A stretch of 24,208 nt of DNA from a virus (lineage: Duplodnaviria; Heunggongvirae; Uroviricota; Caudoviricetes). The translations under genes were made by a program, and so were the position numbers. Of this stretch, positions 23,789 through 24,208 are shown piece by piece; the stretch's first letter is position 1; each line of letters starts with the position of its first letter. The stretch covers positions 1 to 24,208 of the IMG/VR virus record IMGVR_UViG_2529292882_000005; one strand, written 5' to 3'. The notes below the pieces were generated by a model that made no database searches, was not told the DNA's origin, and was given only the letters and a program-made list of their open reading frames with translations.

Positions 23789-24208
23789 ATGTCTGTATTA
23801 ATTTCGGGTGTGCTGACGGATGGCACGGGACTCCCCATGTCCGGATACCATATTATTCTGAAAGCCCGACAGAATACATCCGCAGTGGTTATGAGAACGG
23901 TGGCAACAGTGGTGACGGGGCCGGCAGGAGAATATGCATTTGAGGCTCAGACCGGAAGATATGACGTTTATCTTCGGTCATGTATTGAAAGAGAATATTG
24001 TGTTGGTGATATTTCGGTTTACGACGATTCAAAGCCCGGCACACTGAACGACTTTCTGACCGCCCTTGATGAAGGCGATTTAAAGCCGGATGTAGTGAAA
24101 CGCTTTGAGGAACTGGTGGCGCAGGCGCAGCAGAGCGCGGAAGCGGCAGCGGAAAGCGAACGACAGGCCGGGCAACATGTCGCTGATGCGCAACAAATCA
24201 AGAGCGAC
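23789..24208 (+). CDS. stf: side tail fibre protein, N-terminal part (lambda Stf-like); truncated by the right window edge
   Basis: MSVLISGVLTDGTGLPMSGYHIILKARQNTSAVVMRTV...GRYDVYL...VYDDSKPGTLNDFLTALDEGDLKPDVVKRFEELV parallels the lambda Stf N-terminus (MAVKISGVLKDGTGKPVQNCTIQLKARRNSTTVVVNTV...YEDSQPGTLNDFLCAMTEDDARPEVLRRLELMV). aggaaa SD upstream. Open to the window end. Confidence 0.8.
   Translation, partial: MSVLISGVLTDGTGLPMSGYHIILKARQNTSAVVMRTVATVVTGPAGEYAFEAQTGRYDVYLRSCIEREYCVGDISVYDDSKPGTLNDFLTALDEGDLKPDVVKRFEELVAQAQQSAEAAAESERQAGQHVADAQQIKSD

Follow-up and report, generated by a model that had tools for sequence, protein, structure and literature searches.

[quoted passage not shown] Each of the 4 trimeric fibers contributes three adjacent gpStfN domains via flexible linkers, and these side fibers speed adsorption and are non-essential, lambda PaPa showing their dispensability (PMC12617516). 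Two contractile-tailed phages, XM1 (gp40; PDB 7kjk) and A-1(L) (gp82; PDB 8keg), carry a second set of trimeric fibers besides their baseplate fibers, each fiber starting with an Ig/transthyretin-like domain of ∼100 residues that is followed by a helix. In XM1, six gp40 trimers bind the neck proteins gp4 (connector) and gp5 (terminator) via the 100-residue N-terminal domain (PMC10457771), and in A-1(L) the N-terminal domain gp82N hooks the neck fibers onto the neck, five of them on a gp5 pentadecamer; the distal module of the A-1(L) neck fiber did not bind host cells (PMC10966104). Multi-copy rings also anchor fibers round the tail cylinder in T5 (pb1/p132), DT57C (LtfC), and Bxb1 (gp4), as we propose below for the phage studied here, but all three are siphophages whose collar lies close to the tail tip, and in T5 the collar is a separate protein. 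In terms of gene order, the relevant systems are the contractile-tailed phages phiP27 and Rac-SA53. The phiP27 fiber and Tfa genes L54 and L55 are followed by L56 (PF08400, 490 aa) and L57 (DUF4376) and then by attR, and the Rac-SA53 genes tail1/tail2 are followed by tail3 (1061 aa)/tail4 and then by attB.

The locus compared here with these systems belongs to an E. coli prophage that has a lambda-type head and a P2-type contractile tail, and that was analyzed as one stretch of 24,208 nucleotides (IMG/VR record IMGVR_UViG_2529292882_000005; hereafter the window). Its lambda-type head genes encode terminase, gpW, portal, S49 protease, decoration protein, major capsid protein, FI, and FII, and its contractile tail genes are arranged in the P2-type order V-W-J-I-H-Tfa-sheath-tube-E-T-U-X-D. 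The last gene of the core tail module, at 22676–23764 on the plus strand, encodes a tail/late control protein of 362 aa. In this module the Pfam profiles GpU and Tail_X score above their cut-offs, whereas Phage_GPD reaches 22.9 bits on gene D, below its cut-off of 30.1; the gene is P2-type D by its context in the U-X-D order. PGAP names it a late control protein in relatives, and its product is 47% identical to the “tail formation protein D” of phage Chris1.

Downstream of the gene D stop codon, which ends at 23764, a fiber ORF (stf) starts with an ATG at 23789 on the plus strand and continues for 140 codons without a stop through the last base of the window, 24208. The intergenic spacer (23765–23788, plus strand) is 24 nt long and includes a Shine-Dalgarno sequence, AGGAA, at 23778–23782, 6 nt 5′ of the ATG. 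The plus strand between D and stf holds no promoter-like or terminator-like site, and a search for promoters, terminators, and tRNA genes found none associated with the start of the fiber gene, which is probably co-transcribed with gene D at the end of the tail late operon. Two short minus-strand ORFs, at 23889–24044 and 24019–24201, were rejected as genes; nothing supports them independently, and the fiber coding frame within which they lie is strongly supported.

The N-terminal part of the fiber fragment is a clear collar domain by sequence. The profile PF08400 (“Prophage tail fibre N-terminal,” phage_tail_N) aligned residues 1–134 to positions 1–134 of its 134 (E = 1.2e-56), and the score of 190.8 bits, against a gathering cut-off of 26.6, places the fragment in this family. 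The best solved relative was the N-terminal domain of Ur-lambda Stf (PDB 9e7m; residues 1–93, E = 4.2e-19). The ORF, the profile match, and the structural relative confirm what a preliminary description had read from the sequence, namely a second fiber gene with a lambda Stf-like N-terminus right after a P2-type gene D, and the alignment to Stf that it called for gave an N-terminal match far beyond chance. Its statement that the first ∼140 residues track lambda Stf closely was somewhat generous. Ungapped identity to lambda is 47% in the folded domain (residues 1–94) and only 28% in residues 95–140, which are the Ala/Gln/Glu-rich start of a coiled coil; tblastn against lambda orf-401 gave 46.2% identity over residues 1–106 and 43.9% over residues 1–123.

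An AlphaFold2 model of the fragment (pLDDT 82), for which the alignment was drawn from the database relatives of the fragment, mostly “partial” proteins, places six strands within residues 2–77, and a long helix follows at 100–139. On this model, codons 1–94 (23789–24070, plus strand) are predicted to form a six-stranded beta sandwich of the transthyretin/carboxypeptidase-regulatory type, homologous to Ur-lambda gpStfN, and codons 95–140 (24071–24208, plus strand), which include the predicted helix, form the linker and the start of a trimeric coiled-coil shaft, cut by the contig end. Foldseek searches with the model returned lambda gpStfN (9e7m) first, with a TM-score of 0.84 on the target and 47% identity, together with XM1 gp40 (7kjk; E = 8.6e-7, TM-score 0.57–0.62) and, marginally, A-1(L) gp82N (E = 5e-3, TM-score 0.43–0.48, rmsd 14.9). 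The collar domain thus has a homologue in gpStfN and a relative in the Ig-like N-terminal domain of gp40. Both neck anchors are remote from the window protein in sequence, with identities of 24% for XM1 gp40 and 13% for A-1(L). A phmmer search recovered XM1 gp40 at E = 7e-4 with the window fragment and at E = 6e-9 with a full-length relative, in the latter case partly through low-complexity coiled coil, and the gp40 N-terminus aligns to PF08400 end to end, yet at 20.3 bits, below the cut-off of 26.6.

Whether the fiber ORF is truncated, which the preliminary description had left to the downstream sequence to decide, could be settled from the parent assembly. An exact gpD protein match led to scaffold JH768573.1 (GCA_000261385.1), which is the same as the window at all 11,533 compared positions and in which a 100-N gap begins one base after window position 24208. 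The next contig of this scaffold repeats the final 43 nt of the window at its start and extends the fiber frame, and the merged ORF has 780 open codons and is 99.7% identical to the intact 1042-codon gene of locus L036, a contig with 3 mismatches in 11.5 kb. The window ends where a contig ends; the ORF is not truncated, and the break at the window end is an assembly artifact. A second gap in the scaffold, ∼2 kb past the first, covers the last ∼260 codons of the fiber gene, for which intactness rests on the near-identical genomes, and past this gap the DUF4376 gene is 100% identical to its copies in L036 and in a further locus, L034. The L036 fiber gene (11114–14242) contains an internal repeat of 245 nt (nt 826–1070 vs. 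1999–2243, 84% identical), and the fiber gene also has segments in common with other prophages, so that assemblies break within it and most relatives of the fragment are labeled “partial.” A protein homologue search with the fragment accordingly returned almost only “partial” proteins of 80–245 aa, which were of no use for the full-length architecture. The same caution holds for Stf-N fibers in databases, where repeated, mosaic fiber DNA breaks contigs and many entries are “partial” for this reason.

Lambda Stf is ∼774 aa long. The window-type protein is unlike it in having 1042 aa with an internal module duplication, which in the continuing contig and in L036 takes the form of two central fiber motifs, at aa 237–396 and 664–786, that carry PF03406 and match the end of lambda orf-401 plus the start of orf-314. 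In the continuing contig and near-identical relatives, each motif copy is followed by a globular module, and a variable distal domain comes after these. The likeness to Ur-lambda Stf (PDB 9e7m/9mgh) therefore covers the collar domain (44–47% identical, with the same six-strand fold), the linker and trimeric coiled-coil shaft, and the central motif “APLDSPA.TGTPT...SPEALDTLNELAAALGNDP” (52–70% identical, present in two copies in the full-length relative), and it includes the accessory, dispensable nature of the fiber and a chaperone gene immediately 3′. Beyond the central motif the two proteins part. A tblastn comparison of the 1042-aa protein and its partner with lambda positions 15000–23500 gave no match past aa 786 and none for the partner; the distal domain has no similarity to the gp37-type tip of lambda and T4, and the partner, a presumed assembly chaperone, is a DUF4376 protein and not a Tfa (Caudo_TAP). 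An alignment to lambda Stf and Tfa, which the preliminary description had proposed, is hence borne out for the anchor (aa 1–123) and the central motif and fails for the distal part and the chaperone, which are unrelated, and the label “lambda-like” fits only the former two. The full-length relative also matches the “tail collar fibers” of Bxb1 (gp4, through the central fiber motif at aa 695–753; E = 9e-11), the XM1 collar spike (E = 6e-9), and the Mu S fiber (E = 8e-5).

The other fiber of the window is encoded 5′ of the sheath gene. The gene at 16050–17279 (plus strand) encodes a P2 H-type baseplate fiber of 409 aa with the N-terminal baseplate-attachment domain PF12571 (E = 2.7e-14), has Tail_P2_I upstream, and is followed at 17282–17824 (plus strand) by the gene for its Caudo_TAP assembly chaperone (180 aa; PF02413, E = 1.1e-23), which is 73% identical to phiP27 L55. 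The distal part of the H-type fiber is 37–48% identical to phiP27 L54 and Rac-SA53 tail1. Neither the two fibers nor the two chaperones of the H-type and Stf-type cassettes have detectable similarity to each other, and each cassette has its own chaperone type, Caudo_TAP with the H-type fiber and DUF4376 with the Stf-N fiber. Two fiber loci of different ancestry, as first described, are thus present, and the dual receptor specificity that was read from them is a conjecture. The W-J-I-fiber-Tfa block lies between V and the sheath gene in the window (13565–23764), which is the classic P2 order, and after gene D in the Hafnia phage yong2 and the Citrobacter phage Chris1 (L026, L040).

The same pairing of cassettes is found in phiP27 (L56/L57) and Rac-SA53 (tail3/tail4). 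There, as in the window, the PF08400 N-terminus (80–84% identical to that of the window over 140 aa) is combined with a DUF4376 partner, the cassette forms the last structural genes at the prophage end (attR), an H/S-type baseplate fiber with its Caudo_TAP coexists with it, and shaft and tip modules are held in common. The two phages differ from the window in that the Stf cassette directly follows the Tfa gene of the first fiber, whereas in the window it follows gene D and lies 6 kb from the H-type cassette. The two-cassette layout is therefore not new, and the gene is named by PGAP; the window is one more prophage combining an H-type baseplate fiber with a Stf-N-anchored accessory fiber, an arrangement sequenced since phiP27 and named by routine annotation, and the finding as such is correct but ordinary. 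XM1, which has both gp18 and gp40, differs from the window in that gp40 is encoded alone, on the opposite strand and far from the tail genes.

What the window has in common with these phages does not extend to the virion backbone. When every window protein was searched by tblastn against phiP27, Rac-SA53, and XM1, none from the head, neck, sheath, tube, or baseplate had a counterpart there, and, except for fiber and lysis genes, the virion proteins of phiP27 and Rac-SA53 show no detectable similarity to those of the window or between the two phages. In the lysis region of the window, the endolysin (2525–2908) matches phiP27 L30 at 97.6% identity, and a 115-aa protein encoded downstream (3229–3576) matches L33 at 97.4%; heads, necks, and tails of the two phages are otherwise unrelated, so that a lysis module is common to different backbones. 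Upstream of the lysis cassette, a 141-aa ORF (1206–1631) matches phrog_632, “tellurite resistance,” of the moron category (E = 1e-64). By tail proteins the closest isolated phages are yong2 and Chris1, with sheaths 61–64% identical to that of the window; neither has a Stf-N gene, which makes the cassette an add-on.

The cassette and its close relatives were surveyed in 5,426 complete E. coli genomes. Of these genomes, 74 contain at least 80% of window positions 21000–24208, a segment that spans the junction of D and stf, and 145 contain a close copy of the 420-nt fiber segment; a contig scan with the 140-aa fragment gave only six loci, at 59–72% identity. The Stf-type gene has 672 codons in E423, 739 in L030/L033, 757 in CEA224S, 766 in L035, 790 in STEC309, and 1042 in L034/L036/L014, and it is a pseudogene in E. 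coli E9 (L023, 9001–10424), where it stops after ∼183 codons, leaving ∼0.9 kb up to the DUF4376 gene, with the rest of the tail module intact. The frame is thus intact over 672–1042 codons in seven of the eight distinct relatives examined. In every relative the Stf-type gene is followed by the DUF4376 gene and then by the prophage end. In L034, the DUF4376 gene is separated from the prophage end by three cargo genes (14902–16915, minus strand), which encode a DUF5384 protein, a TraT-like glycine-zipper lipoprotein, and an ORF6N-domain protein.

Modular fiber swapping, which the preliminary description had offered as one reading of the two loci, is directly visible in both cassettes. Among prophages whose gpD is identical, the Stf-type gene is 739, 766, or 1042 codons long and the H-type gene 409 or 475; the Stf-type genes of close relatives have 672, 757, and 790 codons. 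The Stf-type proteins are alike over their first 200–228 residues and patchy beyond, with collagen repeats in the E423 fiber and a tip in the STEC309 fiber with 79% identity to that of phiP27. Prophages with identical or near-identical tail modules (L002, L022, L023, L024, L030, L034) are found at different chromosomal sites, namely at tRNA-Ser next to hya, at ssrA, at uspF/ompN, at ompW/yciE-trp, and near mgrB/cspC, from which it follows that integration modules have been exchanged as well. In L038 (1–5149; GCA_036184205.1, JAVHFW010000069.1), a Mu-type baseplate region encoding a GpP-like protein, Mu gp45, gp46, Baseplate_J, Mu gp48, and a 336-aa fiber is joined to a window-like block running from Tfa and sheath through D to stf; this junction either arose naturally, by recombination through the shared Tfa gene, or results from chimeric assembly.

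Substitution rates locate one of the recombination joints. Compared with Rac-SA53, dS is 1.27 in codons 1–94 of stf and 0.04 in codons 95–140, a drop that places a joint at the linker between collar and shaft, at codon ∼95 (window position 24071). The collar domain itself is under purifying selection, with a dN/dS of about 0.15 at a dS of about 1.3 in comparison with phiP27 and Rac-SA53, and the collar allele of these two phages is 74–77% identical to that of the window. In all 18 loci with a gpD 90–100% identical to that of the window, the collar is at least 96% identical to the window collar, vs. 68–77% where the gene follows a Mu-type or Rac-SA53-type fiber cassette. A collar allele that tracks the gpD backbone could mean docking that is specific to the backbone, and simple linkage is an equally good explanation. 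Since phiP27 and Rac-SA53 have one collar allele (96% amino acid identity, dS 0.19) on unrelated backbones, linkage may account for the pattern, and we draw no conclusion on specificity.

The same data bear on whether the cassette is a working part of the virion at all. It might be passenger DNA, acquired by recombination, undocked or unexpressed, and kept as a reservoir of fiber modules for co-resident prophages, and its place at the extreme prophage end, where morons are typically found, would agree with this, as would the pseudogene in E9, the closest isolated relatives that manage without the gene, the single collar allele on backbones that have no other virion protein in common, and the dispensability of such fibers in lambda PaPa. 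We nevertheless consider a mere passenger improbable, given that the frame has stayed open in all but one of the distinct relatives, that the dedicated chaperone gene is always kept, that the gene is tightly coupled to gene D behind a good Shine-Dalgarno sequence, and that a distinct collar allele has been retained in each of the 18 loci with this gpD backbone while shaft and tip were swapped; the low dN/dS of the collar points the same way, at a dS that is saturating.

If the fiber is assembled, its place on the virion would depend on what the collar can encircle. The window encodes a sheath, an FII-type tube, and a P2 baseplate, and no gpV or gpM homologue was seen in it; unlike the virion that bears lambda Stf, this virion thus has a contractile P2-type tail without gpV and gpM and hence without the lambda docking site. 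From this, from the covered tube, and from the neck position of the XM1 and A-1(L) anchors, we infer a neck-mounted ring. In the mechanism that we propose, the three collar domains of each trimer would combine with those of neighboring trimers to close a 12- or 18-subunit ring round a narrow six-fold cylinder of the virion. Since sheath and baseplate cover the tube, the narrow cylinder left exposed would be the neck, made up of the gpFII-like connector and the tail completion/terminator proteins, and the ring would most probably sit there, the position seen in the myophages XM1 and A-1(L), instead of at the tip of the tail, the lambda position. So mounted, it would carry 4–6 extra fibers that add or speed reversible adsorption to a second receptor, with contraction triggered by the H-type baseplate fibers. 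The linker at codon ∼95 and the shaft would act as recombination joints at which shafts and tips are swapped between prophages.

The candidate platform for such a ring would be the product of three neck genes at 11911–13584 (plus strand), whose docking role is conjectural. They encode the gpFII-like connector (11911–12318, plus strand; PF05354; PDB 1k0h, E = 3e-7), a Neck1/tail-completion protein (12296–13021, plus strand), and a 184-aa protein (13030–13584, plus strand) with a weak match to the R-pyocin collar protein PA0615 (6u5f, E = 0.087), with PHROG matches in this region to phrog_27 (E = 5e-27) and phrog_1072. The neck-protein PHROG assignments of the window, phiP27, Rac-SA53, and XM1 all differ, and no conserved docking partner was found among them; a BLASTP comparison of the window Neck1-like protein with phiP27 L42 was negative, and the neck proteins of the window are not detectably related to those of XM1 or A-1(L). 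The window resembles XM1 in being a contractile-tailed phage with baseplate fibers, having sheath, tube, V/W/J/I, and an H-type fiber, and it differs from A-1(L), which has a 15-fold adaptor ring and five fibers. Provided that the fiber is assembled at all, we tentatively favor a collar ring at the neck, at a confidence slightly short of even, and the second fiber may accordingly not be a second baseplate fiber.

The rival placement is that of a true side tail fiber in the lambda sense, at the tail end, giving a virion with two fiber sets at the baseplate. The nearest solved homologue, Ur-lambda gpStfN (47% identity, TM-score 0.84), does sit at the tail tip, as do the Bxb1 collar-type fibers, and in phiP27 and Rac-SA53 the gene is directly 3′ of the baseplate fiber cassette. 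The lambda ring, however, clasps a bare tube at the gpV/gpM junction, and in the phage of the window neither homologue was seen and the tube is enclosed; as we picture the geometry, a ring of 12 or 18 such small domains would hardly span a sheath, and in each of the two contractile-tailed phages for which a homologous or similar anchor has been solved, that anchor is on the neck. A distal position of the fiber is for these reasons unlikely in our judgment. A position at the neck would also suit a whisker comparable to T4 fibritin, acting in the assembly or retraction of baseplate fibers or in sensing the environment, with no part in host binding, and the distal neck-fiber module of A-1(L) that failed to bind host cells would fit this. 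We regard such a role as very improbable for the fiber of the window. Its distal part is hypervariable, is mosaic between otherwise identical prophages, and has its own chaperone, which together are the signature of receptor-binding proteins under host-range selection, and the fiber carries repeats of the lambda-Stf/Mu-S type.

On balance, the explanation of positions 23789–24208 that we consider somewhat more probable than its rivals combined is that they are the first 420 nt of an intact accessory fiber gene of ∼1042 codons, the penultimate gene of the prophage, whose product would be mounted as a ring on the neck. Literature searches on virion morphology or proteomics of phiP27-like or Stf-N-bearing myophages returned nothing usable, and we infer the expression, virion incorporation, copy number, and position of the Stf-type fiber in this prophage family from genomes and models. 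The interest of the anchor lies in its being a small domain that structures have located both at the tail tip of lambda and on the neck of XM1 and that occurs here on a P2-type tail. Its position in the virion of the window would reveal how a single adaptor can serve unrelated tails, and it bears on the role of neck fibers in the host range of temperate E. coli myophages and thus on retargeting. More speculatively, the PF08400 collar might be a portable, plug-in anchor that puts a second, exchangeable set of receptor-binding fibers on the neck of contractile-tailed temperate phages, on backbones without detectable sequence similarity; the allele of phiP27 and Rac-SA53 and the 75%-identical allele on the P2-type virion of the window would be examples. 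If this rather doubtful generalization were true, docking would be fold-level or avidity-driven, and the collar would offer a general handle for phage retargeting.

One further feature of the tail module is a -1 frameshift site of the P2 E/E+E′ type. An in-frame slippery heptamer, T_TTT_TTG, lies at 20189–20195 in the tail assembly chaperone gene (19923–20231), upstream of the tape-measure gene, and in relatives the piece downstream of the heptamer is annotated by PGAP as a separate “hypothetical protein” of 45 aa.
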